Below are positions 9,335 to 26,973 of a stretch of DNA of 64,000 bases, in pieces. Origin of the DNA: Alphaproteobacteria bacterium (lineage in GTDB: Bacteria; Pseudomonadota; Alphaproteobacteria; SP197); NCBI GenBank assembly GCA_965116515.1, contig OZ220705.1, forward strand, positions 4,381,113 to 4,445,112, in the 5' to 3' direction. A program made the position numbers and the translations under genes. Numbering within the stretch: the stretch's first letter is position 1; each line of letters begins with the position of its first letter. The notes beneath the pieces are model-generated. The model saw nothing but the letters and a program-made list of their open reading frames with translations. It had not been told where the DNA came from and searched no databases.

Positions 9335-9422
9335 ATAACTGGCGGGTCACAGATCGTCAAGCACTCTTCTTCCCGTCCTGTCGCGAGGACGGGAGTTGCG
9401 AACAACAGGGGACGAACACCGC

Positions 9423-12306: not shown

Positions 12307-12322
12307 CAGGCAGAGTGTCAGT

Positions 12323-12350
12323 GCGGCGGCGGGACGCGTCCCGCTGCCGC
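12323..12350 (+). other. Intercistronic GC stem-loop between the GS-like and amidotransferase-like genes
   Basis: GCGGCGGCGGGACG/CGTCCCGCTGCCGC near-perfect inverted repeat (one mismatch) inside the 70-nt gap. Confidence 0.4.
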
Positions 12351-12376
12351 CCGACGACAAGGGGAGACAACAAGGC

Positions 12377-13312
12377 ATGTGTGGCATTGCAGGCATCATT
12401 CACCGCAACAGGTCATCCGACATCGGCTCGGAAATGACCTCCATGTTGCAGTCGCTCAAGCACAGGGGACCGGACTCGACGGGATTTGCCATCTACGGCA
12501 TGCCCCGGGAGGACGAGTTTGTCCTGCGCTTCAAGGTCGCCGAACAGGAAGACGCGGCAAAGGGCTACAACATTCACCAGGAAATCCGGGACCGCCGGGC
12601 CGAAGTCGACCGCCGTCTCGCCGAACTCGGGGTGGAGGTGGTCGAGACCGTCGATGCCACGGAGTACGCCTATCGCTACCGCATCAAACATGGCGGCGAC
12701 ATGCGCAAGGTGGCCGACTACGTCGAGGACGTGACCTCCACCGAGATCCTCTCTCTCGGGAGCCGCCTTGAGCTGATCAAGGATCTTGGAGACGCATCGA
12801 CCGTGTCGGACCAGTACGCGCTCAGGGGCTTCAATGGCACCCATGCCATCGGGCACACCCGCATGGCCACGGAATCGGATGTCGACATCCGTTCTGCCCA
12901 TCCCTACTGGGCCTATCCCTACAACGACATCGCCGTGGTGCATAACGGCCAGCTCACCAACTACTGGATCATGCGCCGCGAACTCGAGCGCAAGGACTTC
13001 CGCTTCATGTCGAGCTGCGACAGCGAGCTCATCTCGGTCTACCTCGCCGACAAGCTGCAGGAAGGCGTCGATCTGGAAGAGGCCATGGTGCAGTCGGTCG
13101 ACGAATTCGACGGAGTCTTCACCTACCTCGTGGCGACGTCGGACAAACTCGGCATGGCCAAGGACGACATGGCCGCCAAGCCCATGGTGCTCTACGAGAG
13201 CGACGACCTGGTGGCCATGGCCTCCGAAGAGGTCGCCATCCGCCAGGTCCTGCCCCACGAAATCGACACGCACGATCCCTACGACCGGGAGGTTCGGGTA
13301 TGGCAGAGCTGA
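12377..13312 (+). CDS. Class-II (Ntn) glutamine-amidotransferase-like subunit (GlxB/MgsA-like)
   Basis: Starts MCGIAGI (N-terminal nucleophile Cys), ...HTRMATES...HPY...VHNGQLTNY. Confidence 0.85.
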   Translation: MCGIAGIIHRNRSSDIGSEMTSMLQSLKHRGPDSTGFAIYGMPREDEFVLRFKVAEQEDAAKGYNIHQEIRDRRAEVDRRLAELGVEVVETVDATEYAYRYRIKHGGDMRKVADYVEDVTSTEILSLGSRLELIKDLGDASTVSDQYALRGFNGTHAIGHTRMATESDVDIRSAHPYWAYPYNDIAVVHNGQLTNYWIMRRELERKDFRFMSSCDSELISVYLADKLQEGVDLEEAMVQSVDEFDGVFTYLVATSDKLGMAKDDMAAKPMVLYESDDLVAMASEEVAIRQVLPHEIDTHDPYDREVRVWQS

Positions 13313-14145
13313 ACGAGACCGCGCGCTCCCACGACATGGGGCTGCATACCGAGCAGCTCACAGGGCGCACGCAGCAGAGGTTCTTCGATGTCAGCGAAGA
13401 GGGGAACCATCTCTACCCGGAAGCGTTTGACGTCGATTACAACAAGCGCGCCATCATCGATGCCATCGACATGGATGCCCGGGGCGTGAACCGGAAGATC
13501 CGTGACCTGATGGCCGAAGGATACGGCTCCATCGTTGTCCGCAATCCCCAGGCCCGCCATTCCCTGGCCGTGGGTATCCTGCAGCGGCTCAACCTGACCT
13601 TCGAGGGAAGCCTCGGGTACTTTGGCGTCGGGCTCATTGACGGCCCCAATGTCAGGGTGACCGGCCGCGTGGGCTGGTCATGCGCCGAGAACATGATGGC
13701 CGGCACCGTGATCGTCGAAAAGAACGCCGGTTCGACCTTCGGGGCCGCCATGCGTGGCGGCGATCTCGTCTGCATGGGCGATGTCGGTTCGCGGACGGGC
13801 ATCGACCAGAAGGGCGGCACCATCATCGTCGGTGGCCGGACCGGCGCATTCTCGGCGTTCATGATGCAGCGGGGCCGCATGATCGTGCTTGGCAACGCGG
13901 GCAAGAACCTCGGTGATTCGATGTACGACGGAACCATATTCGTAGGAGGCTCGATCGAGAGTCTCGGTGTCGATGCCGTGCCAGGAGAAATGTCCGATCT
14001 CGATTGCGCCTGGCTCGAGCGCAAACTCGGCATGTATGGCCTCAGGGCGCCGGACGGTGTCGCCAACATGACCAAGATCGTCGCCGGCAAGCAGCTCTGG
14101 AACTACGACAATCTTGAACCGTCAGAGAAGAAGATCGTTCTCTAG
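13300..14145 (+). CDS. GXGXG-motif beta-helix subunit (glutamate synthase alpha C-terminal-domain-like; GlxC/MgsB-like)
   Basis: Repetitive G-rich beta-helix pattern GSLGYFGVGL..GRVGWSCAENMMAGTVIVEKNAGSTFGAAMRGGDLVCMGDVGSRTGIDQKGGTIIVGG. Overlaps the upstream gene by 13 nt. Confidence 0.8.
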   Translation: MAELNETARSHDMGLHTEQLTGRTQQRFFDVSEEGNHLYPEAFDVDYNKRAIIDAIDMDARGVNRKIRDLMAEGYGSIVVRNPQARHSLAVGILQRLNLTFEGSLGYFGVGLIDGPNVRVTGRVGWSCAENMMAGTVIVEKNAGSTFGAAMRGGDLVCMGDVGSRTGIDQKGGTIIVGGRTGAFSAFMMQRGRMIVLGNAGKNLGDSMYDGTIFVGGSIESLGVDAVPGEMSDLDCAWLERKLGMYGLRAPDGVANMTKIVAGKQLWNYDNLEPSEKKIVL

Positions 14146-14167
14146 GCCGGTGGGAGACAACCAGAAA

Positions 14168-15520
14168 ATGACCGCAGACGCTAACGGCAATGGCCGCAAC
14201 AGGGAAATCCTCGGCGAGAATTTCATGTTTCCGCCACGGGTGGTCGACGACATCCACATCAAGGCCGAACTCGGACGGTACCGCATGCGCGGCATGGCCC
14301 TGTTCAAGAAGATCCCGACCTGGGACGATCTCACCTTCCTTCCGGGTACCCTCACCCGTTTCGTGATCGAGGGATATCGCGAAAAGTGCCAGACACGGAC
14401 CGTGATCGGGCCCCGCGCCGGACGTCCCCTGGTTCTCGATATTCCGGTCTATGTCACCGGCATGAGCTTCGGCGCCCTGAGCTACGAGGCGAAGACCGCG
14501 CTGGCCCGCGGCGCCACCATGGCGGGCACGGCGACGTGTTCCGGCGAAGGCGGCATGATCCCCGATGAACGCCGCTACTCGGAAAAATGGTTCTACCAGT
14601 GCATCCAGTCGCGCTACGGCTTCAATCCGCATCACCTGCGGCTGGCCGACGGTTGCGAGTTCTTCATCGGCCAGGGCTGCAAGGTCGGCCTTGGCGGTCA
14701 TCTCATGGGCCAGAAGGTCACCGACCAGGTGGCCGAGATGCGGTCCCTGCCTGCGGGTATCGACCAGCGCTCGCCGGCACGCCATCCCGACTGGCTGGGC
14801 CCCGACGACCTGGCCCTCAAGATCCAGGAAATTCGCGAAGCCACGAACTACCAGATCCCGATCCAGCTCAAGCTTGGTGCGGCGCGGGTCTACGATGACG
14901 TGCGCATGGCCGTGAAGTGCGATCCCGACTCCATCTACATCGATGGCATGGAAGGTTCGACCGGGGCAGGCCCCCACCTTGCCACCGAGGAAACCGGCAT
15001 TCCCGGTATCGCAGCCATACGTCAGGCCAGGCGGGCGATCGATGATCTCGGCAAGCGCGGCGAAATCACGCTCATCTACGCCGGTGCGGTGAGAAACGGC
15101 GGTGATCTGGCGAAGGCGCTCGCTCTCGGCGCCGACGCGGTCGCCATCGGGACCACCGCCATGATGGCTCTCAACTGCAACAAGGACATCCCGGAGGCGG
15201 ACTTCGAGGGTACCATCGGGGTTCCTGCCGGATACTGCTACCACTGCCATACCGGCCGCTGCCCGGTCGGTGTCGCAACCCAGGATCCGGAGTTGCGCAA
15301 GCGCCTCAACCCCGATGATGCGGCCGAACGCGTCTACAACATCCTCCATACACTGACCATCGAATGCCAGATGATGGCGCGGGCCTGTGGCAAGACCAAC
15401 GTTCACAGCCTCGAACCGGAGGATCTGGCGGCACTGACCATGGAAGCCTCGGCCATGGCGGGCGTCCCCCTGGCAGGGACCAGTCACACCGTCGGCGTCG
15501 ATGACTACCACCACCTCTGA
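14168..15520 (+). CDS. FMN-dependent glutamate-synthase-domain subunit (GlxD/MgsC-like)
   Basis: Pattern MSFGALS.EAK.ALA.GA...G....SGEGG...QGAKxGxGG.L...KV..EIA..R...PG...SP..H.D...EDL (seen as VTGMSFGALSYEAKTALARGATMAGTATCSGEGG...IGQGCKVGLGGHLMGQKV). ATG 14168 is preceded by GGGAGA. Confidence 0.85.
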   Translation: MTADANGNGRNREILGENFMFPPRVVDDIHIKAELGRYRMRGMALFKKIPTWDDLTFLPGTLTRFVIEGYREKCQTRTVIGPRAGRPLVLDIPVYVTGMSFGALSYEAKTALARGATMAGTATCSGEGGMIPDERRYSEKWFYQCIQSRYGFNPHHLRLADGCEFFIGQGCKVGLGGHLMGQKVTDQVAEMRSLPAGIDQRSPARHPDWLGPDDLALKIQEIREATNYQIPIQLKLGAARVYDDVRMAVKCDPDSIYIDGMEGSTGAGPHLATEETGIPGIAAIRQARRAIDDLGKRGEITLIYAGAVRNGGDLAKALALGADAVAIGTTAMMALNCNKDIPEADFEGTIGVPAGYCYHCHTGRCPVGVATQDPELRKRLNPDDAAERVYNILHTLTIECQMMARACGKTNVHSLEPEDLAALTMEASAMAGVPLAGTSHTVGVDDYHHL

Positions 15521-15538
15521 CCCGGACAGGTAACGCAG

Positions 15539-15940
15539 ATGACAGGCACAACTGACAAAACGGCCGACGTCGACTACTTCCTCACTTCGGACGGTCTTGA
15601 CACGTCCCGCGAGAAAGAGATCGGCCAGCACATCGGCTATCGCTACGACGTCAACCTGCTTCCCGACTATGACCGGTTGACGCCGTTCCTGAAGACCTAC
15701 ATCGAACTCATGGGCTGGGACGATCTCAACTGGCTCGAGGATGTCCACATGGGCTACGAAGAAGGTCATGCCGCGGTCTTCGACCGCAATGCGAATGGCT
15801 GGATTCGCGTTCCCGAATCCTTGGACCTGCCGGACAACCAGCAGGACCGCGACATGATCGCCCGTGAGCTCCTGATCAAGTTCCAGATGTCGGATCGCCA
15901 TCCCATGCGCGATCTCTACCGCGCCTATCGCAAGTTCTGA
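15539..15940 (+). CDS. Hypothetical acidic 133-aa protein, last gene of the gamma-glutamyl module
   Basis: Uninterrupted ORF with a GC3-rich codon pattern, 18 nt after the upstream stop and followed by a hairpin. No motif recognised. Confidence 0.55.
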   Translation: MTGTTDKTADVDYFLTSDGLDTSREKEIGQHIGYRYDVNLLPDYDRLTPFLKTYIELMGWDDLNWLEDVHMGYEEGHAAVFDRNANGWIRVPESLDLPDNQQDRDMIARELLIKFQMSDRHPMRDLYRAYRKF

Positions 15941-15948
15941 TCGTCACC

Positions 15949-15969
15949 TGCCGGCGGCGACCGCCGGCA
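15949..15969 (+). terminator. Terminator-like GC hairpin after the operon (no clear U-tract)
   Basis: TGCCGGCGG-cga-CCGCCGGCA, 9-bp perfect stem beginning 9 nt after the stop codon. Confidence 0.35.
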
Positions 15970-16103
15970 CCAGTACCTGCTCTCCCATCCCGGAAAGGCA
16001 CGGACGCCTGTCGCGCCACCGGGCTGGTCGTCCCCCTCCCGATTCCTGGTGACGTTCCCGACCCATGCGGACCCGCCGGCGGCGCGGCGCTCGGGCAGAC
16101 CCG

Positions 16104-16664
16104 TCAGACCTGTGTCACAGGAGGGTTGGCGACGGCTCTCTCCCAGTCGGGAAGGAAGGCAAGCGCGCGCGGCGCTGCAGGCGGCGGGGCAAACAGGGCA
16201 TTGTGCCAGAAGAGCGCCGTGGCGAAGCGATCGTCGCCCGGCAGGTCCTGAACGTCGCATGGCAGGATCCAGGACTGGCTGAACTGCTCGAAATGGAGTG
16301 TCGCGCTGCCAGCGGCAACGAGAGCGGCGGCACCCGGTGACTGCCGGGAGAACTGAGCGAACAGCCGCGGCTCGAAATCCCGCGATGTCTGGAAGTAGGT
16401 TGCTGCCAGGTGCTTCAGCCCCTTCTCGAAGCGCTCCCGGGGATCATGGGTGCCCGAGACCGTCTGGCGAAAGAGAGCCGCCGCGTCGGCCGGCTCCCTC
16501 TCGATGAGGACCGTCCGGACGTGGCCGAGGATGCCGCCGTCGGCAAGGACGGCACGGGGTGTCATGGCGCTGGAGGGACGCCCGTTCTCCCGGCGCATGG
16601 CGTGCTGGCGAATGAGGCACTGCCAGGCCATGAACGCGTCTCGCAGGGCATTCTCCCCGGCCAT
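16104..16664 (-). CDS. Hypothetical protein (186 aa), translationally coupled to yggT-like gene
   Basis: GC3-rich ORF. Its ATG lies 6 nt after the upstream stop, with GAGGAG inside the end of the upstream gene. No motif recognised. Confidence 0.55.
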   Translation of the reverse strand: MAGENALRDAFMAWQCLIRQHAMRRENGRPSSAMTPRAVLADGGILGHVRTVLIEREPADAAALFRQTVSGTHDPRERFEKGLKHLAATYFQTSRDFEPRLFAQFSRQSPGAAALVAAGSATLHFEQFSQSWILPCDVQDLPGDDRFATALFWHNALFAPPPAAPRALAFLPDWERAVANPPVTQV

Positions 16665-16670
16665 GGCTCC

Positions 16671-17042
16671 TCAGAAACCGCCGAGCCCGCCACCGAAGAG
16701 ATCGTAGAGGATGGCGGCGATTTCTCCCTCGAGGGGGAAGGACAGCATGCCGAGCACCGAGTACCCGAGAATCCAGGGCAGGACGTAGAAGCGGAACAGG
16801 AAGAAGAACCAGGCGACGAAAAGCGGCACGATGGGGTCGATGAGAAATCCCGGCGTCACCGGCCGGAAGACCCGCAGGACCGGATCGGTCAGCATGACGA
16901 ACGCCCGCATGAAGAAAAAGTCGGATGTCACGGGAAGGAAGATGTTCATGGCCGCGCGGCCAATCAGCGTCCACATGATGGCGCCGAGGATGTAGTCGAG
17001 GCCCACCACCCACCAGGGGAGAACAGCCGCCAGGCTGGTCAT
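16671..17042 (-). CDS. YggT-family small membrane protein
   Basis: 123 aa with four hydrophobic segments. Pattern ...DPVLRVFRPVTP...DPIVPLFVAWFFF resembles YGGT repeats. Confidence 0.65.
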   Translation of the reverse strand: MTSLAAVLPWWVVGLDYILGAIMWTLIGRAAMNIFLPVTSDFFFMRAFVMLTDPVLRVFRPVTPGFLIDPIVPLFVAWFFFLFRFYVLPWILGYSVLGMLSFPLEGEIAAILYDLFGGGLGGF

Positions 17043-17075
17043 CGGATCACGGCTCCCGGGCTGTCATGAACAGAC

Positions 17076-17106
17076 AAGGGGGCGGACAAGAACTGTCCGC
17101 CCCCTT
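17076..17106 (-). terminator. Intrinsic-terminator-like hairpin downstream of the symporter gene
   Basis: AAGGGGGCGGACA-agaac-TGTCCGCCCCCTT, 13-bp perfect stem 25 nt after the stop of the 17131-18948 gene. The trailing T-run on the minus strand is weak. Confidence 0.55.
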
Positions 17107-17130
17107 GCAACAAGGGTCTTAAATGATGCG

Positions 17131-18948
17131 TCAGTGCGTTTCAGCCAGGATCGTCTTTCCTGTCGGAACGCGGGTTTCATCCACCATGGCCTGCATCTCG
17201 GCATCCGGTGCTTCGGTGATCAGCGAAACCACGACCATCGCCACCAGCGAGACCGGCATGCCGATCATGCCGAACCGGAGGTGATCGATCGACCACAGCT
17301 GGTCACCACCGTTGTAGACGTGGATGAGGTAGATCGTCCCCGCCGCAAAACCGGCAATCATGCCTGCGATCGCCCCTGGCCTGTTGGCGCGTTTCCACCA
17401 GATTCCCAGAACCAGCGGGAAGAACAGGCCCGAGCATGCGAAGCAGAAGGCCCATGCCACAGCCCCCAGAATGCCCGTGAGCTGCAACGACGCGATCAGG
17501 GCCGCAAGGACACCGATAACCACCAGGAGGACACGGGCGACAATCAGACGACGCTTCGTATCGGCCTTGGGATCGATGATCTTGTAGTAGAGATCGTGGC
17601 TCAGCGCGTTGGCGATCGCCAGCAGCAGACCGTCGGCGGTCGACATCGCTGCCGCCATGCCTCCGGCTGCCACAAGCCCCGAAATCACGTAGGGCAGACC
17701 GGCAATTTCCGGTGTTGCCAGCACGACGATGTCGGGCCTCATGAAGAACTCGTTGAGCTGGACGATGCCATCACCGTTCTGGTCGACGACCGAAAGCATG
17801 CCGACCGCTGTCCAGTTCTGGATCCACTCGAGATTGGTGACGTCGTCAATCGCCTTGCCGACCACTGCCGTTGCCAGATTCGGATCGAGAAGCTGGAGCT
17901 TTGTCAGGGTCGCCAGTGCCGGCGCCGTGAAGTAGAGCAGGAAGATGAAGAACAGGGACCAGCCCACCGACTTGCGCGCCTGACGCACCGACGGCGTCGT
18001 GAAGTAGCGCATGAGGATGTGCGGCAGGGAGGCCGTGCCCGCCATCATGCACAGGGCGAGAGTCACGAACTTCCATGAGTCGAGCCCGCCCTGCGGATCG
18101 AAGTGGGCCGTTGTCAGAACCTTCAGCCCCGCCACGCCTTGAGCCGCCGCCACAAGGCCGTATTCCGCCTCGAGTTCGGCAATACGCAATGCCGCGTCAC
18201 CATAGGTGAAGTGCGGGATGATGCCGAAGCCCTGGGCATTCGACATCCAGATCACGGGCACCAGATAGGCGATGATGAGGACGATGTACTGCGCCACCTG
18301 TGTCCAGGTCACGCCGCGCATGCCACCCAGCATCGAACACAGCAGGATGCCCAGAAGTCCGAACCACACACCGAATTCAAACGGTATGGCAAGGGCCCGG
18401 GCGGCAATCGTGCCGGTCGCGTTGATCTGTGCCGTCACATAGGTGAACGACGCGACCACGAGCACCAGCACGGCACAGAGCCGCGCCAGGTTGCCACCGT
18501 AACGTGTACCGATGAAGTCGGGCACCGTGTAGCAACCGAATTTCCTGAGATAGGGCGCCATCAGGGCGTTGACGAGCACGTATCCGCCCGTCCAGCCAAT
18601 GACAAACCCGAGATAGGGATAACCACCGAAGTAGATTCCTCCCGCCAGGGCGACAAACGACGCACCGGACATCCAGTCCGCTGCTGTCGCCATGCCGTTG
18701 TAGAATGCCGGAACTTCACGTCCGGCAACGTAGTAGGCATCGACCTGCATGGTTCGCGAGAGCCAGCCGATGGTGGCGTAGATCGCAATGGTGAACAGGA
18801 GGAAGAGGATGCCGATCAGCTGGGCGCTTGCACCAAGCTGCTCGACAATCGCCATCAGGGCAAAGAATCCCAGGAATCCAAGGGTGTAGATCCCGTAGAC
18901 CTTGCCCAGACGGTCGACAAAACGGGTTCCCTGTGTTTGATCGCTCAT
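17131..18948 (-). CDS. Sodium:solute symporter (SSS) family permease, ActP-like
   Basis: 605 aa, multi-TM, typical SSS N-terminus. Immediately preceded by a DUF4212-type small subunit. Confidence 0.9.
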   Translation of the reverse strand: MSDQTQGTRFVDRLGKVYGIYTLGFLGFFALMAIVEQLGASAQLIGILFLLFTIAIYATIGWLSRTMQVDAYYVAGREVPAFYNGMATAADWMSGASFVALAGGIYFGGYPYLGFVIGWTGGYVLVNALMAPYLRKFGCYTVPDFIGTRYGGNLARLCAVLVLVVASFTYVTAQINATGTIAARALAIPFEFGVWFGLLGILLCSMLGGMRGVTWTQVAQYIVLIIAYLVPVIWMSNAQGFGIIPHFTYGDAALRIAELEAEYGLVAAAQGVAGLKVLTTAHFDPQGGLDSWKFVTLALCMMAGTASLPHILMRYFTTPSVRQARKSVGWSLFFIFLLYFTAPALATLTKLQLLDPNLATAVVGKAIDDVTNLEWIQNWTAVGMLSVVDQNGDGIVQLNEFFMRPDIVVLATPEIAGLPYVISGLVAAGGMAAAMSTADGLLLAIANALSHDLYYKIIDPKADTKRRLIVARVLLVVIGVLAALIASLQLTGILGAVAWAFCFACSGLFFPLVLGIWWKRANRPGAIAGMIAGFAAGTIYLIHVYNGGDQLWSIDHLRFGMIGMPVSLVAMVVVSLITEAPDAEMQAMVDETRVPTGKTILAETH

Positions 18949-18958
18949 GACACCCTCC

Positions 18959-19213
18959 TCATTCGTCGCTCAGGCCGCATTCTTCATCAATGCGGTCCTG
19001 CAGGAAGTTGTGACCAACGATCAACAGAACGAACACGATGAGCGACCCCTGAACGATCATGTAGTAACCGAGCGGGAATCCCAGGAACGAACCGCCGTCG
19101 AGATCCTTGGCAAAGAACGGAAACACGTATCCGAACAGGAGCCAGATCGCGAGCACCCAGTAGGTCAGGCGCGACGTCTTGGCCCAATGTAGTCTTCTGT
19201 TATCCTGCGACAT
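18959..19213 (-). CDS. DUF4212-type small membrane subunit of solute:sodium symporter
   Basis: 84 aa with two TM helices. HWAKTSRLTYWVLAIWLLFGYVFPFFAKDL...FLGFPLGYYMIVQGSLIVFVLLI matches the family pattern. Confidence 0.8.
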   Translation of the reverse strand: MSQDNRRLHWAKTSRLTYWVLAIWLLFGYVFPFFAKDLDGGSFLGFPLGYYMIVQGSLIVFVLLIVGHNFLQDRIDEECGLSDE

Positions 19214-19308
19214 TCGCCGCCTCCTTCAACAGTTGGTGCCGTAGACCAGCCCCCGGCGCACGCGTCTATTGCCAGGAGGGGCATCTGAAACGGCTAGCGG
19301 GATTATGG

Positions 19309-20010
19309 ATGATGCTTTCACAATTTCAACAGGGAATGGTGCGCCTTTTGAAGGCCGGGGTGCCACTGGTGCCGTCGCTCCCCAGAATTCTGAAGATTCG
19401 CTTCGACCGCTCGAAGCTGCGGACAGTCGACAGCCTGGTGGAATTCATTCACACGAGGTCCTCATACATCGCGCAGACGTCGCTTCACGGATACCTCAAG
19501 ACCCGCATGGGCACGAGCTTCAGGGCATGGTTCGAGGACGAGGCCTTCTCCGACTCGATCCGAATCGCATCGGTCAGGGTTTTTCTTTCCTGCCTCGCCG
19601 ATCTCACTGTCTTTTCCGTGGCCACGGCAGCCCGGCAGACCGTCGTCGACGACGCCGTCCTGGAGGCGCTGGCGGGACACGCCTTCCGCCGGGCCGCCGT
19701 GGCAGGGCTGGCCGGTCAACCTGAACGCGACGACCTCGACGCGACATTCGATGCCTTTGACCGGCGGGCCCGCCTCGAGGACTGGCGGATCGCGGCCGAG
19801 GGTCGCAAGGCCTTCACCGGCAGCGAGGCGGACCTCGTCCGTCTTGCACCCGTCATTGACGAGTACCGGGAACTCGACCGCGAGATTGTGACCAATTCGA
19901 TCCGCTTTCGCTGGCGCGACGTCCGCGAGCAGATTCGCCGGCGCATGGATGGCGACGGGCTCTTCGAGGACTGGAAAGACCGGGTCGGGCGCGGAGCCAC
20001 CGGGTGCTGA
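19309..20010 (+). CDS. Hypothetical protein (233 aa), first gene of exonuclease/DUF294 operon
   Basis: GC3-rich ORF. Its stop overlaps the GTG start of the next gene by 7 nt. No motif recognised. Confidence 0.55.
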   Translation: MMLSQFQQGMVRLLKAGVPLVPSLPRILKIRFDRSKLRTVDSLVEFIHTRSSYIAQTSLHGYLKTRMGTSFRAWFEDEAFSDSIRIASVRVFLSCLADLTVFSVATAARQTVVDDAVLEALAGHAFRRAAVAGLAGQPERDDLDATFDAFDRRARLEDWRIAAEGRKAFTGSEADLVRLAPVIDEYRELDREIVTNSIRFRWRDVREQIRRRMDGDGLFEDWKDRVGRGATGC

Positions 20011-21359
20011 GGCAGCCGACGCGATTCTGGCAGGGCTTGACGCTGTGCCTGGTTTCAGCCTCTGGTGCGACACTGTGGCTCGCCGCACTCGCCTATTGGA
20101 CATCATGGCCACAACACGTGCCCCTGCGAGCACTCGCCATCGGTTCGGGAGTCCTGCTGGCCACAGGAGCCCTGTGGTTCGCCACCGGCCTGGTCCGCGG
20201 ACAGAGGAAGGACATCCAGCGTCTTCGCGGCAGCCTGCTGCTCGCCGGCGGGGAAGGACGGCGCTTCCTTGACCATGCCGACCGCATGGTCACCAACCGC
20301 GAACTGACGGCGCTCGCCGGCACCATCGACAGTGTTCTCGCCTCCCGGGAGCACCGGCGCCAGCTGACCGAACTGCGCCTGACAGGGATTCTGGCGGCGC
20401 TCCCCACCGGCGTGGTGGTCGTCACCCGCACCGGACTGGTCAGCCTGGTCAACAACGCCGCGCGGCACGCCTTTCCCTCCCACGCACTCAGCCCGGGAAC
20501 AAGCGTGTTCGCCGCCATCACACGCGAGAGTGTCCCGGAACCTGACCATCCGGACCCTGTCACCAGTGTCCGGTCCGTTGACGGTCGCGACATCCCCGCG
20601 CGCATCGCGACCCTTGGCGACCGGGGAGGCTGGGTGATGATTCTCGAGGCGCCGCCTGGGAATGGGGGCGTCCATGAACTCGATCACGATCTGGGGCTTC
20701 ACGACAGTCTTCCGCCATCTCCTCCGCCCGAAGAGACCACACCCCTTTCCGCACTGCCAGGCGTCGTCGTCGATTGCGAGACCACCGGACTCGATCCCGG
20801 ACAGGACCGGATCGTCTCCATCGGCGCCGTCAGGATCCATGGCGCCCGGGTCTATGCCCATGCCAATCTCGATACGCTGATCGATCCGGCAACGGCCATT
20901 CCAGGAGCCTCCACGGTCATTCACGGCATCGACGACGCCATGGTCCAGGGTGCACCCGGAATCAGGACCGGTCTTGGGTATCTGGAGGAGATCTCCGGCA
21001 GCTGCGTTGTCATCGGCCACAACATCGGTTTCGATCTCGCCGTTCTGGCTGCTGAAAGCCGGCGGTGCGGAAAGTCCTGGTCCGCCCCCTTCTCCCTGGA
21101 CACCGGCCACCTTGTCGCCGTTCTTGAGCCTGACCTCAAGACGCTGGATCTCGACTCCGTGTGCCGGCACTTTGACGTCGCCATCAGTGGCCGGCACACG
21201 GCACTCGGTGACGCGCTCTCCGCTGCCGAACTCTTCGCTCACATTGTGCCGCTGCTCGAGGACCGGGGTGTGACGACGCTGGGTGACGCCCTCGCCTTCA
21301 CCAGACGGGCGCGGCGCACCCGCTCCCGGCAGCGGTCCCTGAACTGGCAGGTTCCATGA
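20004..21359 (+). CDS. Membrane-anchored sensor-like protein with C-terminal DEDDh 3'-5' exonuclease (DnaQ/epsilon-like) domain
   Basis: Two N-terminal hydrophobic helices (LTLCLVSASGATLWLAALAYW, LAIGSGVLLATGALWFATGLV) and a PAS-like middle (LTGILAALPTGVVVVTRTGLVSLVNNAARHAF). Exo motifs VVVDCETTGLDP, GHNIGFDLAVL, HTALGDALSAAELF. Confidence 0.8.
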   Translation: MLRQPTRFWQGLTLCLVSASGATLWLAALAYWTSWPQHVPLRALAIGSGVLLATGALWFATGLVRGQRKDIQRLRGSLLLAGGEGRRFLDHADRMVTNRELTALAGTIDSVLASREHRRQLTELRLTGILAALPTGVVVVTRTGLVSLVNNAARHAFPSHALSPGTSVFAAITRESVPEPDHPDPVTSVRSVDGRDIPARIATLGDRGGWVMILEAPPGNGGVHELDHDLGLHDSLPPSPPPEETTPLSALPGVVVDCETTGLDPGQDRIVSIGAVRIHGARVYAHANLDTLIDPATAIPGASTVIHGIDDAMVQGAPGIRTGLGYLEEISGSCVVIGHNIGFDLAVLAAESRRCGKSWSAPFSLDTGHLVAVLEPDLKTLDLDSVCRHFDVAISGRHTALGDALSAAELFAHIVPLLEDRGVTTLGDALAFTRRARRTRSRQRSLNWQVP

Positions 21360-22768
21360 ACCACCGTCAGGTCGATACATGGCCCTGGCGCTTTCGCGTG
21401 CGCGACATCATGACTGTCGATCCCGTGTTCGTGGATTCCGGATGCCTGCTCGCCGACACTGCCTCGACGATGATCGACCGGCACATCTCGTCGGTCCTGG
21501 TCGACCGCGAGGGCCGGACTGGCGGCCCCGGAATCATCACTGAACGCGACGTCGTGCGGGCGGTGGCGAACCACGGTCAGGCCGCTCTCCGGCTGGCATC
21601 CGGTGACCTGATGTCAACGCCCCTGGTCTCCGTCATGGCTGACGAACCCGTCTGGGTGGCCCTTGGCCGCATGACGAGACTGTCCCTGCGCCATCTCGCC
21701 GTCACGGATTCGTCCGGTGCCGTGTGCGGCATCATGACCTCGAAGCTGCTGGTCCGGCACCAGGCGGGCGAAGCCCTTGTCATCAACGATGCACTTGAAG
21801 CCGCCTCCAGTGCGCCCGATCTTGCAGAAGTTCATGCCCGACTGGCGCCGATGGCCGGCGCTCTTCTCGACGAGGGCATGAGTGCCTCGCGCATTGCTTC
21901 TATGATCTCGAGCTTCTATCGCAAGCTCACTGCCCGCGCTGCCCGGCTCGCCTCGGCCGAAGAGCCCGAAGACGGCTGGGCCTTCTTCATTCTTGGTTCC
22001 GCAGGACGCGGTGAGTCCCTTCTCGCAGGCGATCAGGACAACGCCATCGTCAGCACCGGCGAGGTGGATGACGCCATCCTCCTGCGCATCGCGTCAAGGG
22101 CCTCGGATCTGCTGGACGCAGGAGGCCTCCCCTATTGCAAGGGCAAGGTCATGGCGTCCAATTCCGACTGGCGACGAACCATGGACGACTGGCAGAAGGC
22201 CATCGCCGGTTGGGCGACGCGCGCCGACGGGGCGAGCCTGCTCAATGTCGACATCTTCTTCGATCTGGTTCACGTGCATGGTGACCGCATGCTGACCGAC
22301 CGGCTGCGCAGTCTGGCACTGGAAACGGCCCGCACTCCGGTGCTGCCGCGAATGATGGCGGAGCAGTTGCAGACCTGGGTTTCGCCGCGCGGATTTCTGG
22401 GTGGCCTGAAGACGAAGGACGGTCGCCTCGATCTCAAGATCGGTGGCCTGTTTCCCCTGGTTGCCGGCGCCCGCGCCATGGCGCTGCGTCACGGCATAGA
22501 AGCCACCGGCACCGCCATGCGCCTGACGGCCCTGGCCGAGCTCGGCACAATCGCCAGGGCCGACCTGCTGGCATTCACTGACGCCCACGAGGTGTTTCTG
22601 GACCTCATGCTCAGACAGCAGGTCAGGGATCTCGAGGCCGGTGTAGCCGCCGGTCCGGGCATCGACGTGACGCAGCTTTCGCCCCGTCAGAAGCGCAACT
22701 TGCGACGGTGCCTTGGTGATGTCTCGCGCCTGCCAGGCCTCGTCCTCGACGTCACGGCGCGCGGCTGA
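21356..22768 (+). CDS. CBS-pair + DUF294 putative nucleotidyltransferase (with DUF294_C-like tail)
   Basis: Two CBS-like repeats (VRDIMTVDPVFV..., DLMSTPLVSV...HLAVTD) and the NTase motif FFILGSAGRGESLLAGDQDNAIV. ATGA overlap with the upstream gene. Confidence 0.85.
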   Translation: MNHRQVDTWPWRFRVRDIMTVDPVFVDSGCLLADTASTMIDRHISSVLVDREGRTGGPGIITERDVVRAVANHGQAALRLASGDLMSTPLVSVMADEPVWVALGRMTRLSLRHLAVTDSSGAVCGIMTSKLLVRHQAGEALVINDALEAASSAPDLAEVHARLAPMAGALLDEGMSASRIASMISSFYRKLTARAARLASAEEPEDGWAFFILGSAGRGESLLAGDQDNAIVSTGEVDDAILLRIASRASDLLDAGGLPYCKGKVMASNSDWRRTMDDWQKAIAGWATRADGASLLNVDIFFDLVHVHGDRMLTDRLRSLALETARTPVLPRMMAEQLQTWVSPRGFLGGLKTKDGRLDLKIGGLFPLVAGARAMALRHGIEATGTAMRLTALAELGTIARADLLAFTDAHEVFLDLMLRQQVRDLEAGVAAGPGIDVTQLSPRQKRNLRRCLGDVSRLPGLVLDVTARG

Positions 22769-22777
22769 TCCACCCGA

Positions 22778-23788
22778 TCATGGCGGTGGCCAAAGCGGGG
22801 CAAGGCGCATGACAGTGAAGGGGCCGATGGTCAATCGTCCGTGCTGCATTGAAAGGTCGACATCGAGGCGCCGCTGGCCGTCCACCGGCGGTCCGGCCAT
22901 GAAATCAAGTGCCGCAATGACGATGTCCGCCTGATCCTGACGCACCTCGCCTGCCTGCGCCAGGGCCATGATGATCTCGCGATAGCCGACGACTTCGAGA
23001 CGCAGGGCGCCAATGGGCCGATTGTCCCCGTCGAGCGCAAGGCGTCCCTCGCCCTGGGCCGCGACCGGCGGCCACTCGAGAACAAGATCACCCAGGTCCA
23101 CGTAACCGCCGGCACGCCGCCAGGCATCCACACGCTCCCTCGCGGTACCCTGGCGCGGCACGGCGCCCACCACACGCATCCGCGCCAGGCCTCTCTCCAC
23201 CCGCCCAGCGGATCCGTTCCCGATTGTCAGGTCCGTCATCTCCAGGAAGACATCCCGGTCATCCCCGTCACCACTGGGGGTCGAGACGACGTCCAGCATG
23301 CCGGCCTCGGCAAGAGCTGTTCCCTTGCCGGAGAACACCGTCACATCCTCGAGACCGATATTGATGGTGTCCACCCCACCGGAGGCAAGCCCGATTGCGG
23401 CGCGGCCATGATCCATGGAAATGCCGACGACATGACGGCGCGAAGGTGTCTCGACGACAAGATCCTGCCTGCGGGGCAGCACCAGTGACAGGCCGGCCAG
23501 GTTCAACGGATTGGTGATGATCACGAGTTCTGATGCATGCCAGGTGGCCTGTTCGCCGCCACGCCCCCAGACAACGGTCGGCTGCTGCGCGGTCATGCGC
23601 ATGGAAAAGGGAAAACCGCCCGCGTCGAGTCGTGTCCAGGAGGCGTGCCAGTCCTTCTCCGGAGACGGGGCCGCGGCCTCGTCCATGATGTCTTCAAGCC
23701 TGAGCGCGAGACCGTGCCAGGCAATCGTGTACGCGACCGCGAGAGCGACAATTGCCGCTGCGATCCACTTGATACGACGCCCGACCAC
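22778..23788 (-). CDS. DUF2125-like membrane-anchored protein
   Basis: N-terminal TM helix (WIAAAIVALAVAYTIAW) followed by ...W..LDAGGFPFSMRM..., resembling the alphaproteobacterial DUF2125 pattern. Family assignment is from memory. Confidence 0.6.
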   Translation of the reverse strand: MVGRRIKWIAAAIVALAVAYTIAWHGLALRLEDIMDEAAAPSPEKDWHASWTRLDAGGFPFSMRMTAQQPTVVWGRGGEQATWHASELVIITNPLNLAGLSLVLPRRQDLVVETPSRRHVVGISMDHGRAAIGLASGGVDTINIGLEDVTVFSGKGTALAEAGMLDVVSTPSGDGDDRDVFLEMTDLTIGNGSAGRVERGLARMRVVGAVPRQGTARERVDAWRRAGGYVDLGDLVLEWPPVAAQGEGRLALDGDNRPIGALRLEVVGYREIIMALAQAGEVRQDQADIVIAALDFMAGPPVDGQRRLDVDLSMQHGRLTIGPFTVMRLAPLWPPP

Positions 23789-23814
23789 AGATCACCGGTT
23801 CCGGTAGAGAAGGG

Positions 23815-26800
23815 TCACTCTGCCGCTTCCAGCGCTGCGCCTGCGCGACCGGAACGGCGCGCCTTGCGGGTCTGGCGCCAGGCGCCGACATTCTCGCGCA
23901 CCATCAGGGCACAGGGTGTGACAATGAGTGTCAGGATCGTGGCGAATGCCAGGCCGAACACGATGGCGCTCGCCAGCTGGACCCACCACTGGGTCGAGGG
24001 CGCTCCCACGCTGACCTCTCGGGTGACGAAATCGATGTTGACCTGCAGCACCATGGGCATGAGTCCGAGAATGGTCGTGATCATGGTGAGCAGCACCGGT
24101 CTCAGGCGCTGTGCCCCGGTCCGCAGAATGGCTTCGACGGGATCCCCGACCGTCCGGCGAAGCCTGTCAAAGGTGTCGATGAGAACGATGTTGTTGTTGA
24201 CCACGATGCCGGCGAGGGCAATGACGCCGATGCTCGACATGATCATGCCATAGGGCTTGCCGGTCACAAGGAGGCCGATCATGACCCCGACTGTCGACAT
24301 GATCACCGCGGAAAGGATGAGGAAAGCCGAATAGAAACTGTTGAACTGCGTGACGAGAATGATTGCCATCATGAAGAGAGCGACGATGAAGGCCTTGAGC
24401 AGGAACTCGGATGCCTCTTCCTGACGTTCATTGTCCCCCCGGAAATCAACTCCGACGCCGGGACCGAGTTCGACTGTGCCCAGCCATGCCTGCAGGTCAC
24501 GCACCAGGGAATCCGCCAGCACCCCTTCCTTGATATCAGCCGCGATGGTCATGACGCGTTCGCCGTCCACCCGCTGGATCCTGCCGACCCTTGGTCTGGC
24601 CGAGCGCTCCACAAAGTTCCTGATCGGCACGTGACCCAGAGGAGTCTGGATGCGGAGCTGGTCAAGCCCGTCAAGAGTGCGCATGCCTTCCGGGAACCGG
24701 ACCAGGACATCGATCTCTTCATTCGAATCATCGAGGCGCACCGTGGTGATGCGCAGCCCCCTGGTCACGAGCTGAATGATCGAGCCGACCGAGCCGATGT
24801 CCGCTCCGAACTTCGCCGCCTGGGTGCGATCGACAACGACCTCCCACTGAATTCCGGGAATCGGACGGCTGTCCTCGATTTCCTTCAGTCCATCCACCTC
24901 GTCGAGATGGTCGCGCAGGGTGGCAATCGCTTCTTCCAGCAGAACCGGATCGCTCGCGGACACCTGGATGTTGATCGGCTTCTCGGATCGCGGGCCCCGC
25001 CTCTGCCCACGTGATTCGACATGGATGCCGGCAAGGCTGGCGACTCTCTCGAGGACGTCCTCGAAAATGGACGACGCAGGACGTCTCAACGACCAGTCGA
25101 CGAGTTCCACGTTGACCGTTCCGATGGCGTCTTCGGCCCCCCGGGAATCCTCTCTTCCGCCTGAAGTCGCAAAGATCGTCTCGAACTCCTTCATGTCGAG
25201 CAAGCGGTCCTCGACTTCGCGAACCAGAACGTCCTTTTCCGCAGTGGAGAGGTTGCCCCTGGCATGAATCTGGAACGCTGCCCTTTCGGGTTCGATATCG
25301 GGAAAGAACTCGACACCCTTGCCATAGCGGGCGTAGGCGACCTGCACCCCGGCCAGCAACAGGACCGAGACAAGGAGAACCTTGACCGGGTGGCGCAGCA
25401 GGACGCGCAGGATCGCGAGATAAAGACCGGTAAAGCCACGCACACCATCGAGGCTGCTCCCCGAGTCCTCGGACAAGGCACGTGCCTGATCGCCGCCATG
25501 CCCGGTGCTCTTGCCAAACAACGATCCCAGGGTGGGCACGAAGATGAGCGCCATGGCAAGCGATGCGGAGAGAACAGCAATCAGGGTGATCGGCAGGTAC
25601 TTCATGAATTCGCCGACCATTCCCGTCCAGAACATGAGGGGAAAGAACGCCACGAGAGTTGTCAGGGTCGAAGCGGTGATCGGCCAGGCCATGCGGGAGG
25701 CGGCCGAAAAGTAGGCCTCGCGGCGACCGAGACCTTCGGACATCTTCCGGTCGGCATACTCGGTCACGACAATGGCGCCATCGACAAGCATGCCGACCGC
25801 GAGAATGAGGCTGAACAGCACGACGATGTTGAGAGTCAGGCCGGCGATCGCGAGAACCAGGATTCCGGTCAGGAACGATCCCGGTATGGCGACACCGACA
25901 AGCGCGGCCGATCGCCAGCCCAGACACCATACGATCACGATCATCACGAGAAGCACGGCTGTCAGCACATTGTTCTGCAGATCGGCCAGCATGAGCCGGA
26001 TGCCCTTCGACTGGTCCCTCGAGAAGGCGACCTTCACGCTCGACGGCCAGTCTGCGCTTGTTGCCGCCACGACAGCCCTCACCTTTTCGATGGTCTCGAT
26101 GATGTTCTCGCCGGTTCTCTTGGACACCTCGATGGTCAGCGCCGGCTCGCCCTTCACCCGTGCATGGACCCTGGCATCCTTGAATGTCCGCCTGACCTCT
26201 GCCAGCTCGCGGACACTGGTTGTCGCATCTCCCCTGATCTTGAGGGGCAGGCCCAGGAAGTCATCCACGTCGTCGATGAGCCCGGGGACCTTGATTGCGA
26301 ACTGTCCGGCGCCCGTATCCATCAGACCGACCGCCACCGGCCGGTTGGACCCACTGATGTCCCGCGCGATCTCGATGACATTGAGCCGGTAGCTCTCCAG
26401 GGTCACCGGGTCGACGATGACTTCGATCACCTCCTCGCGGTCCCCCTTGATGACGGCCTCAAGGACTTCACTCACCCCCTCGATGTTGTCCTTGAGTGTG
26501 CGGGCCAGACGCAACATGGTCCGTTCCGGCACGTTGCCCGAAAGGCTCACAACGAGTACGGGAAACAGCGACAGGTTGATCTCGTGCACGGTGGGATCGT
26601 CCGTGTCGTCAGGCAGGTCATGCCTGGCGATGTCGACCCTGGCCCGGACGTCCTCAAGGGCGGTATCGGGATCAAATCCCGCTTCGAATTCCAGAGTGAC
26701 GTTGGCGCCACCCTCAAACGCCGTCGACCTGACTTCCCTGACATTCTCGATACCGCGCAACTCCTGTTCCATGGGCTTGATCAGGAGACTGACCGCATCA

Positions 26801-26973
26801 TCCGGCGAAATTCCCTCGTGGTGCATCGACACGTAGATAATGGGGATATTGATGTCGGGATCGGACTCTTTCGGGATCGCGACGTAGACCGACACGCCGA
26901 CAACCAGGAGCAGTACGAGGGTGAGCAGGACCGTTCGGGGATGGTCGAGCGCGGTGTTGATAAGGGCGTTCAC
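23815..26973 (-). CDS. RND efflux transporter permease (AcrB/HAE family)
   Basis: 1052 aa, 12-TM architecture with two large periplasmic loops and a typical N-terminus ...HPRTVLLTLVLLLVVGVSVYVAIPKESDPDINIPIIYV. Confidence 0.95.
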   Translation of the reverse strand: MNALINTALDHPRTVLLTLVLLLVVGVSVYVAIPKESDPDINIPIIYVSMHHEGISPDDAVSLLIKPMEQELRGIENVREVRSTAFEGGANVTLEFEAGFDPDTALEDVRARVDIARHDLPDDTDDPTVHEINLSLFPVLVVSLSGNVPERTMLRLARTLKDNIEGVSEVLEAVIKGDREEVIEVIVDPVTLESYRLNVIEIARDISGSNRPVAVGLMDTGAGQFAIKVPGLIDDVDDFLGLPLKIRGDATTSVRELAEVRRTFKDARVHARVKGEPALTIEVSKRTGENIIETIEKVRAVVAATSADWPSSVKVAFSRDQSKGIRLMLADLQNNVLTAVLLVMIVIVWCLGWRSAALVGVAIPGSFLTGILVLAIAGLTLNIVVLFSLILAVGMLVDGAIVVTEYADRKMSEGLGRREAYFSAASRMAWPITASTLTTLVAFFPLMFWTGMVGEFMKYLPITLIAVLSASLAMALIFVPTLGSLFGKSTGHGGDQARALSEDSGSSLDGVRGFTGLYLAILRVLLRHPVKVLLVSVLLLAGVQVAYARYGKGVEFFPDIEPERAAFQIHARGNLSTAEKDVLVREVEDRLLDMKEFETIFATSGGREDSRGAEDAIGTVNVELVDWSLRRPASSIFEDVLERVASLAGIHVESRGQRRGPRSEKPINIQVSASDPVLLEEAIATLRDHLDEVDGLKEIEDSRPIPGIQWEVVVDRTQAAKFGADIGSVGSIIQLVTRGLRITTVRLDDSNEEIDVLVRFPEGMRTLDGLDQLRIQTPLGHVPIRNFVERSARPRVGRIQRVDGERVMTIAADIKEGVLADSLVRDLQAWLGTVELGPGVGVDFRGDNERQEEASEFLLKAFIVALFMMAIILVTQFNSFYSAFLILSAVIMSTVGVMIGLLVTGKPYGMIMSSIGVIALAGIVVNNNIVLIDTFDRLRRTVGDPVEAILRTGAQRLRPVLLTMITTILGLMPMVLQVNIDFVTREVSVGAPSTQWWVQLASAIVFGLAFATILTLIVTPCALMVRENVGAWRQTRKARRSGRAGAALEAAE

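Follow-up and report, generated by a model that had tools for sequence, protein, structure and literature searches.

What do a 3'-5' exonuclease and a nucleotidyltransferase (NTase), encoded side by side, do next to a solute symporter? The question is raised by a locus in a 64,000-nucleotide stretch of an alphaproteobacterial genome (assembly GCA_965116515.1, contig OZ220705.1, positions 4,381,113 to 4,445,112 of the forward strand; hereafter the window). There, the minus-strand genes of a DUF4212-SSS symporter diverge from three overlapping plus-strand open reading frames (ORFs): ORF1, which belongs to a new protein family, ORF2, a DEDDh exonuclease, and ORF3, a CBS-DUF294 NTase. DUF294 (COG2905) proteins and their companion exonucleases are among the most widespread signalling-type pairs without a biochemical function, and in many Proteobacteria, Pseudomonas aeruginosa among them, they lie beside symporters of the acetate, lactate and alanine types. 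We propose, tentatively and at somewhat under an even chance, that the two enzymes form a GlnD/GlnE-like writer/eraser module of protein nucleotidylylation that tunes the symporter.

The association of the DUF294/exonuclease pair with symporters is already on record. COG2905 is cofit with DUF4212/SSS (Price et al., bioRxiv 10.1101/072470), and these fitness data suggest that the NTase is needed for transporter function; PA3232-PA3235 of P. aeruginosa are induced ~16-fold on propionate (PMC9765439). New here are the ORF1 family, which is almost invariably coupled to one highly conserved DUF4212-SSS-YGGT cassette, a conserved hairpin in that cassette, the fusion/fission relation of the two enzymes, and the assignment of the NTase to the GlnE/DrrA fold.

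The exonuclease and the nucleotidyltransferase as one module

Gene coordinates were taken from a six-frame ORF list of the window, which reproduced exactly the five ORFs, the 95-bp divergent gap between DUF4212 and ORF1, and the overlaps of 7 nt (ORF1/ORF2) and 4 nt (ORF2/ORF3, ATGA) that a first reading made from the letters of the window (hereafter the sequence-only reading) had described. Homologue searches returned numerous homologues for all of these genes, so chance ORFs are excluded. Pfam and NCBIfam scans bore out the domain calls of that reading (SSS, DUF4212, RNase_T, CBS, DUF294). The motifs it had named, DCETTG, HNIGFD, HTALGD and GSAGRGE...DQD, were all located, and their catalytic residues were invariant in family alignments.

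The RNase_T domain of ORF2 (PF00929, residues 254-411) was detected at 9.8e-27 with 94.9 bits against a gathering score of 24, and D257, E259, D344, H398 and D403 of its Exo I, II and III motifs were invariant in 46 homologues and 19 fusion proteins. N-terminal to this domain, the membrane part of the membrane/PAS segment proposed earlier was found as two transmembrane (TM)-like hydrophobic segments (residues 11-30 and 43-64). For the PAS part, the window protein itself had no Pfam match at E<=0.01, but among the 46 aligned homologues PF00989 matched 26 and PAS_8 matched 19 in the homologous segment. ORF3 contains DUF294 (PF03445) and DUF294_C (PF10335), with two CBS domains ahead of them, at 115.5, 105.6 and 64.5 bits, above the gathering scores. 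Its G214-x11-D226-x-D228, D299 and D303, which comprise the Pol-beta NTase motif and further carboxylates, were invariant in family alignments.

Two traits of these enzymes had been singled out as atypical, namely an NTase that starts directly with CBS and an exonuclease with a membrane/PAS-like sensor. Both turned out to be ordinary in Alphaproteobacteria. The cyclic-nucleotide (cNMP)-binding domain typical of COG2905 had no match in the window protein or in its top 120 homologues; it occurs in the Skermanella relative. TM-PAS-exonucleases of ~450 aa number in the hundreds among the homologues, sensor-extended exonucleases recur (for example, a 688-aa PAS and RNase_T protein), and the split form with the 2-TM and PAS extension is found in the window clade, in L065 (related loci are numbered L001-L095) and in other Rhodospirillales. 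TM/PAS-exonucleases and CBS-only DUF294 proteins are thus common variants in Alphaproteobacteria.

The exonuclease and DUF294 genes were adjacent at every locus that holds either (L001-L095). In 19 ORF1-linked loci outside the window clade they form a single ORF of 695-777 aa, in the order RNase_T, linker, CBS, DUF294, DUF294_C. One such natural fusion is that of the cultured isolate Pacificispira spongiicola KN72 (L038). This fusion aligns colinearly with the window pair, the C-terminus of the exonuclease and the N-terminus of the NTase together covering the linker across the gene boundary. Each of the 20 sequences aligned, including the 19 ORF1-linked fusions, retained the full set of DEDDh and NTase catalytic residues. 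Exonuclease fusions also made up ~25 of the top 120 DUF294 homologues, and the exonuclease-CBS-DUF294 fusion occurs in Phreatobacter as well. As judged from these alignments, the two enzymes of the window are probably a split version of proteins that are fused elsewhere. Adjacency and natural fusions with both active sites uphold the earlier view that exonuclease and NTase are a functional pair.

Linkage of the module to SSS symporters

Members of the ORF1 family occur in at least 576 species-representative genomes; 80 loci (L001-L080) were fetched and searched by tblastn with every window protein. The module lay within 8 kb of ORF1 in 28 of the 57 loci with enough flank, in at least four arrangements: directly downstream of ORF1 in 20 loci, beyond the YGGT-like gene and on either strand in 5, and at 4-8 kb in 3, with none in 29. 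By chance, a single-copy pair would be expected in a 16-kb interval of a ~4-Mb genome at a frequency of ~0.4%, and the observed linkage of module and symporter is ~100 times this expectation.

An independent sample was anchored on DUF294 by tblastn against annotated plasmids and chromids, and ten diverse loci were inspected. In seven of them, from Alpha- and Gammaproteobacteria, an SSS-family symporter lies directly upstream and co-directional. Four are of the DUF485-ActP type (P. aeruginosa, Microvirga with acs, Methylocella and Rhodovulum) and three of the DUF4212-SSS type (Skermanella, Marivivens with acs, and Shinella). An annotated exonuclease is part of the DUF294 operon at nine of the ten loci, including one Bacillota member. 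The two samples, along with the published cofitness and co-induction, support the linkage to SSS symporters that the sequence-only reading had stated, and show it to be strong.

These data bear on an account of the locus without a functional link, in which the symporter is only an incidental neighbour of an exonuclease that descends from DNA repair or proofreading paralogues. Its best sequence matches are indeed the exonuclease domains of PolC, DnaQ and DinG, and its best sequence relative in the PDB is the PolC exonuclease domain 2p1j. However, the exonuclease is fused to CBS-DUF294, it carries N-terminal TM and PAS domains, its adjacency to DUF294 is kept across phyla, the Bacillota member included, and its linkage to the symporter far exceeds chance. 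The fusion and synteny data already contradict an incidental position, to which we attach an almost negligible probability.

The predicted nucleotidyltransferase fold is closest to protein AMPylases

The AlphaFold2 (AF2) model of ORF3 had a local confidence score (pLDDT) of 90.9. In Foldseek searches its N-terminus matched CBS pairs, and its NTase and helical part matched the adenylylation domain of GlnE (3k7d, E 3.8e-8, 370 columns) and the GlnE deadenylylation domain (1v4a, E 5.5e-8, 393 columns). DrrA (6yx5) was matched at E 3e-6 over 337 columns, with a target-normalised TM-score (TMt) of 0.67. The nearest structures to the modelled DUF294 part are those of GlnE and DrrA, which are protein AMPylases. 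DUF294_C has been grouped with the C-terminal domains of GlnD and GlnE (Anantharaman et al., PMC3710099), and Pfam does likewise. When the DUF294 family profile was searched against PDB sequences it matched CBS domains only, which leaves the NTase part without a solved sequence relative. A CBASS/CD-NTase-like defence system was also considered for the locus and rejected, PADLOC giving only generic DEDDh matches for ORF2 and none for ORF1 or ORF3.

DEDDh enzymes such as Orn clear dinucleotides (pGpG), a precedent for a different use of the same two activities. In this alternative the NTase would make a linear or cyclic oligonucleotide as a second messenger, the exonuclease would degrade it, and the receptor would possibly be ORF1 or the transporter. 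A synthase and a degrader in one polypeptide would resemble the GGDEF-EAL enzymes, and sensor domains are attached to both enzymes (CBS and PAS, with cNMP-binding in relatives). However, the NTase resembled neither CD-NTase models nor those of other defence NTases, the nearest folds, GlnE and DrrA, modify proteins, no known receptor domain is encoded nearby, and most DUF294 loci have no ORF1. We consider a second messenger very unlikely. Of the writer/eraser idea in the sequence-only reading, the branch that invoked a nucleotidylation switch is favoured by the GlnE/DrrA fold over the branch that invoked a nucleotide signal.

The symporter cassette and ORF1

Both symporter subunits belong to the VC_2705 family by its curated models. 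The SSS protein matched TIGR03648 (large subunit) with 679 bits against a cut-off of 320.75, and Pfam SSF too; DUF4212 matched PF13937 at 2.3e-21 and TIGR03647 with 74 bits against a cut-off of 26. The small-subunit gene adjoins the large-subunit gene upstream on the same minus strand, across a 10-bp gap. In other species, D-alanine or lactate use depends on DUF4212 and its SSS partner, which are cofit (Price et al., bioRxiv 10.1101/072470). The window SSS protein shares only ~39% identity with the SSS proteins linked to DUF4212 elsewhere and ~27% with ActP, and forms a distinct orthologue group. Among ORF1-linked loci, SSS identity was 76-97% and ORF1 identity over the same set was 41-85%. 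Across Paracoccaceae, Hyphomicrobiales and Rhodospirillales-like metagenome-assembled genomes (L013-L079), the values were 76-91% for SSS, 41-60% for ORF1 and 51-79% for DUF4212. The SSS gene may be either under unusually strong constraint or of recent horizontal origin.

A further gene of the cassette had been missed in the sequence-only reading. By tblastn, a YGGT-like gene lies 3' of SSS in ~76 of the 80 related loci (~95%), and the symporter operon extends past the hairpin described below to this gene. The YGGT-like protein carries TM-like segments and matched Pfam YGGT (PF02325) at 2.1e-4 with 22.1 bits, below the gathering score of 27. All 15 orthologues tested gave similarly weak matches (best 4.8e-5), and none of the 15 reached the cut-off.

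ORF1 had been taken for an extra unknown first gene of the enzyme operon. Instead, it divergently adjoins DUF4212-SSS in ~76 of the 80 loci and is a conserved core partner of the symporter, the one most tightly linked to it. The same reading had seen no recognisable motif in it, and this held: ORF1 had no match in Pfam (to E<=10), NCBIfam, PADLOC or a PDB profile search, hhalign gave no relation to the DUF294 and exonuclease families, and tblastn against plasmids found nothing. We obtained 438 ORF1 homologues. A profile search of 1.84 billion cluster representatives returned 667 matches, all of them single-domain proteins of ~200-265 aa, with no informative fusions among the 667. The AF2 model is all-alpha (pLDDT 88.9; predicted TM-score, pTM, 0.84), and a Foldseek search against the PDB gave no match (best E 0.8, TM<=0.3). 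The protein is basic (isoelectric point, pI, 9.05), with many invariant arginines and the near-invariant motifs AQTSLYGYLKTRMGT and EIVxNSIRFRWRDVR. ORF1 represents a new, uncharacterised family, predicted with confidence to be all-alpha.

A proposed model of reversible protein nucleotidylylation

The fusion evidence and the GlnE/DrrA fold together make a bifunctional reading in the style of GlnD and GlnE the most economical one. In the proposed model, the CBS-DUF294 protein would act as the writer, attaching a nucleoside monophosphate (NMP) to a hydroxyl group of its target protein, and its CBS pair would sense the adenine-nucleotide (energy) state. The DEDDh enzyme would act as the eraser, hydrolysing the protein-O-P-5'-nucleoside phosphodiester and freeing the 5'-NMP; the bond chemistry would equal that of 3'-terminal nucleotide removal. 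In the window lineage the eraser would be tethered to the membrane and gated by its PAS-like domain, and a membrane anchor fits a membrane-proximal target better than DNA proofreading. The modification state would set the activity or the production of the neighbouring symporter. ORF1 would be the likeliest target or adaptor, in a role like that of PII/GlnK between GlnD and AmtB, because it is a conserved neighbour of the transporter, often directly precedes the module, and here is coupled to it in translation. The window holds a four-gene transporter cassette (ORF1, DUF4212, SSS and the YGGT-like gene) that occurs in many Alphaproteobacteria, and downstream of ORF1 the two-enzyme module has been added to it. 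What is shown is the order and domain identity of the genes, their intact active sites, the fusion/fission relation, the synteny and the similarity of fold; what we infer in this model is a protein as the substrate, the exonuclease as its eraser, ORF1 or the transporter as the target, and the direction of the effect. The most specific version, in which the DEDDh enzyme acts not on nucleic acids but reverses DUF294-written nucleotidylylation, and ORF1, with a fold unseen before, is the PII-like adaptor whose modification state gates the Na+/solute symporter, is decidedly doubtful; if true, it would be a new post-translational control of transport, parallel to GlnD-GlnK-AmtB.

Several observations weigh against the proposed model. 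About half of the ORF1/symporter loci (29 of 57) have no module within 8 kb. A close relative (L001, chromosome OZ243917.1) has suffered a ~2.4-kb deletion in the module, L001 8696-9340 corresponding to window 20004-22768; of the exonuclease gene only the initial ~330 nt survive, interrupted by a gap that shifts the frame, and of the DUF294 gene only the final ~25 nt. This natural module knockout retains intact ORF1, DUF4212, SSS (97% identical) and YGGT-like genes. Since the cassette was kept when the module was deleted, the module is dispensable for keeping it, and the exonuclease and DUF294 genes are facultative neighbours of the symporter cassette. The module is also found without a symporter, in Phreatobacter, Vibrio pelagius, Cytobacillus, Pelagibius and Paracoccus aminovorans. 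Most DUF294 loci lack ORF1, which accordingly is not a universal target. By sequence, the exonuclease domain is nearest to DNA proofreading domains (PolC, DnaQ), and literature searches found no biochemistry for any DUF294 protein, nor any DEDDh enzyme shown to act on nucleotide adducts of proteins. The effect that Price et al. (bioRxiv 10.1101/072470) surmised was on expression rather than activity.

The retention of ORF1 and the cassette after module loss in L001 also suits a division of labour in which ORF1 alone is the dedicated regulator or accessory of the cassette, for instance as a transcription factor of a new fold or as a partner that binds the transporter from the cytoplasm. In that case the module would be a general signalling device of its own, often settled beside carboxylate transporters, with no direct interaction with ORF1. 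ORF1 neighbours the cassette divergently with or without the module, this order is the classic layout of a local regulator, and a basic protein rich in invariant arginines would fit such a role. However, neither a helix-turn-helix nor another DNA-binding domain was found in ORF1 by sequence or by fold. Nor did 59 non-redundant ORF1/DUF4212 intergenic regions yield an operator motif in common: k-mer enrichment returned only Shine-Dalgarno, start-codon and clade-specific words and no palindrome, in a search confounded by the relatedness of the 59 regions. The order of ORF1 followed by the module, moreover, recurs in several families, with the 7-nt overlap here. We regard a role for ORF1 apart from the module as unlikely, though credible.

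If the nucleotidylylation model is correct, the locus would reveal a new catalytic use of the DEDDh fold and a new tie between solute uptake and energy state. If it is wrong, a new ORF1 family, a larger VC_2705-type subunit set and a conserved intercistronic hairpin would still stand. The natural fusion, the GlnE/DrrA fold and the dedicated partner ORF1 make the model testable, with named candidate substrates.

Hairpin and promoter elements

A hairpin with a stem of at least 9 bp and at least 6 G-C pairs was present ~20-26 nt past the SSS stop codon in 73 of the 76 SSS-YGGT gaps, compared to 8 of 380 shuffled sequences. The stems are of 67 different sequences. A U-rich tail follows 3' of the hairpin in 48 of the 76 loci; the tail in the window is not U-rich, and the window hairpin was missed by the terminator rule because it has no U-run. 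The conserved position of the hairpin, with the YGGT-like gene downstream, shows it to be a conserved intercistronic element, terminator- or attenuator-like, and not the end of the unit. The sequence-only reading had ended the operon at this hairpin: the hairpin is real, but its stem is of 14-16 bp rather than 13, and the YGGT-like gene continues the cassette beyond it.

A G-rich core, GGGGCGG or GGGGCAG, recurs in nearly every 5' arm of the hairpin, at a fixed distance of ~20-26 nt past the stop codon of SSS, even in otherwise unrelated spacers (L001-L080). This core may reflect either sequence-specific recognition or a local style of terminator.

Given that 73 of 76 loci have a conserved hairpin where the SSS cistron ends, control at the level of RNA has to be weighed. 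The NTase would tail an RNA 3' end, that of the symporter mRNA at the hairpin or that of a small RNA, the DEDDh enzyme would trim it, and the resulting stability or read-through would set expression. DEDDh enzymes normally act on the 3' ends of nucleic acids, and Pol-beta NTases include RNA tailing enzymes such as poly(A) polymerases and CCA-adding enzymes. That symporter expression depends on COG2905 is a speculation of Price et al. (bioRxiv 10.1101/072470). On the other side, the nearest folds of the NTase are protein AMPylases and not RNA NTases, DUF294_C belongs with the C-terminal domains of GlnD and GlnE, and Pfam scans detected no RNA-binding domain. The hairpin is equally conserved at loci without the module, and tailing usually destabilises transcripts, yet the fitness data suggest a positive role. 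Control through RNA tailing thus seems to us unlikely but still worth serious thought, and we keep to protein nucleotidylylation as the favoured reading.

A promoter scan found one sigma-70-like site for the DUF4212-SSS operon where one was expected by chance, which is not significant for the scan alone. When divergent intergenic regions were aligned, TAT in the -10 box and TTGAAA in the -35 box proved to be retained, and the promoter call gains weight only because of this conservation. The promoter-like element, on the minus strand, reaches over codons 1-9 of ORF1, whose true start may therefore be M10, as in the 224-aa form in databases. An Rfam scan of 15500-24000 at E<=1 gave no match, and thus no known riboswitch or leader.

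Features of the window and neighbouring genes

Table 1. Positions of the symporter cassette, the enzyme module and their predicted parts (numbering of the window)
Feature	Position	Strand	Remarks
YGGT-like small membrane protein	16671-17042	-	123 aa; last gene of symporter cassette; weak match to Pfam YGGT
GC-rich hairpin	17074-17108	-	16-bp stem, 3-nt loop, 22 nt past SSS stop
SSS symporter large subunit, VC_2705 family	17131-18948	-	605 aa; TIGR03648, Pfam SSF
DUF4212 symporter small subunit	18959-19213	-	84 aa; PF13937, TIGR03647
Sigma-70-like promoter, DUF4212-SSS operon (putative)	19302-19329	-	TTGAAA, 16 nt, CATAAT
ORF1, predicted all-alpha protein, new family	19309-20010	+	233 aa (224 aa from 19336)
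ORF2, TM/PAS-like DEDDh 3'-5' exonuclease	20004-21359	+	451 aa, GTG start; RNase_T
ORF2, TM1	20034-20093	+	
ORF2, TM2	20130-20195	+	
ORF2, PAS-like segment	~20376-20669	+	
ORF2, exonuclease domain	20763-21236	+	
ORF3, CBS-pair, DUF294 and DUF294_C nucleotidyltransferase	21356-22768	+	470 aa; Pfam
ORF3, CBS pair	21398-21760	+	
ORF3, NTase	21839-22228	+	
ORF3, helical substrate-binding domain	22349-22732	+	

Upstream of the cassette, a run of plus-strand genes at 10834-15520 resembles the N-methylglutamate pathway for methylamine use. Domain scans identified a DAO-family FAD oxidoreductase (9396-10760), a glutamine-synthetase-like (gmaS-like) gene (10834-12306) and a class-II amidotransferase (12377-13312); these are followed by what we take to be a GXGXG-type subunit (13300-14145) and a glutamate-synthase FMN-domain protein (14114-15520). 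Two small ORFs of no family lie between this run and the YGGT-like gene, one of 133 aa (15539-15940, +) and one of 186 aa (16104-16664, -); the latter, which follows the YGGT-like gene, shows conservation within the window clade only. At the other end, a DUF2125 protein (22778-23788, -) is convergent with the DUF294 gene and is followed by a putative RND efflux pump with an HlyD-type adaptor (23815-28094, -), whose 1052-aa ORF is presumably AcrB-like, by its translation.

The module has other neighbours elsewhere. In Phreatobacter (L083-L085; genes at ~4250-9128 of L083) the fused gene lies 38 bp downstream of the gene for a 906-aa PAS-HisKA-HATPase-receiver hybrid kinase and beside flagellar export genes, with no symporter nearby, a context that points to roles of the module beyond transport. 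In Skermanella (L089 7437-8018), Marivivens (L090 6406-6894) and Shinella (L091 6413-6943), proteins of 162-193 aa are encoded between DUF294 and the exonuclease. They are mutually related, had no Pfam match, and show N-terminal hydrophobic segments by eye. The Marivivens DUF4212-SSS-DUF294 operon also holds an inserted response regulator. Two Rhodospirillales loci with the split pair (L081 4662-6335 and L082 5990-7761) share as conserved neighbours a ~165-aa protein, a ~203-aa TPR protein and two membrane products, a peptide of 67 aa and a protein of ~79 aa, a set with no functional annotation beyond the TPR. The intervening proteins of Skermanella, Marivivens and Shinella and the small proteins of L081 and L082 were compared to ORF1, the N-terminus of the exonuclease and the 186-aa ORF, and were unrelated.

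Comparison with known systems

The closest counterparts of the locus are the pairs of COG2905 and DnaQ-like exonuclease beside ActP/DUF485 or DUF4212/SSS, for example P. aeruginosa PA3232-PA3235, Shewanella Sama_1522-1525 and P. stutzeri Psest_0346-0349. The window shares with them both enzyme families, their adjacency and the linkage to SSS. It differs in that its module is divergent from the symporter whereas theirs is co-directional, and in its gene order, with the exonuclease preceding the NTase. The window NTase lacks the cNMP domain, and the exonuclease has the 2-TM and PAS-like extension. The transporter in the window is accompanied by ORF1 and the YGGT-like gene, and its SSS protein stands at the ~39% identity to other DUF4212-linked SSS proteins given above.

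Among VC_2705-family symporters with DUF4212, the window pair passes both curated models (TIGR03648/TIGR03647). Its orthologue group has added conserved partners, ORF1 and the YGGT-like gene, along with the conserved hairpin, none of which is recorded for the family in bioRxiv 10.1101/072470, in PMC9765439 or in the NCBIfam/Pfam scans.

DrrA/SidM, the Rab1 AMPylase of Legionella, has an AMPylase domain that matches the DUF294 model, and it works opposite the de-AMPylase SidD, a separate protein, as the proposed writer and eraser are in the window. Unlike the window enzymes, DrrA/SidM is an effector that is secreted, and it contains GEF and P4M domains. Its eraser has a PP2C-like fold, and homology to the window is confined to the NTase module.

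GlnD (uridylyltransferase/uridylyl-removing enzyme, UR) and GlnE (adenylyltransferase/adenylyl-removing enzyme, AR) have in common with the window NTase the NTase and helical substrate-binding fold and the G-x11-D-x-D motif. They unite opposing activities in one polypeptide, as we propose for the fused relatives of the window enzymes, with a small-molecule sensor attached. Removal is carried out by an HD domain in GlnD and by a second NTase domain in GlnE, whereas the partner in the window is an RNase_T/DEDDh domain; the sensor is ACT in the known enzymes and CBS or PAS in the window. ORF1, predicted to be all-alpha, is unrelated to PII. The GlnD-GlnK-AmtB axis would nevertheless share its logic with the system proposed here, which leads from an enzyme to a small adaptor and from the adaptor to a membrane transporter.

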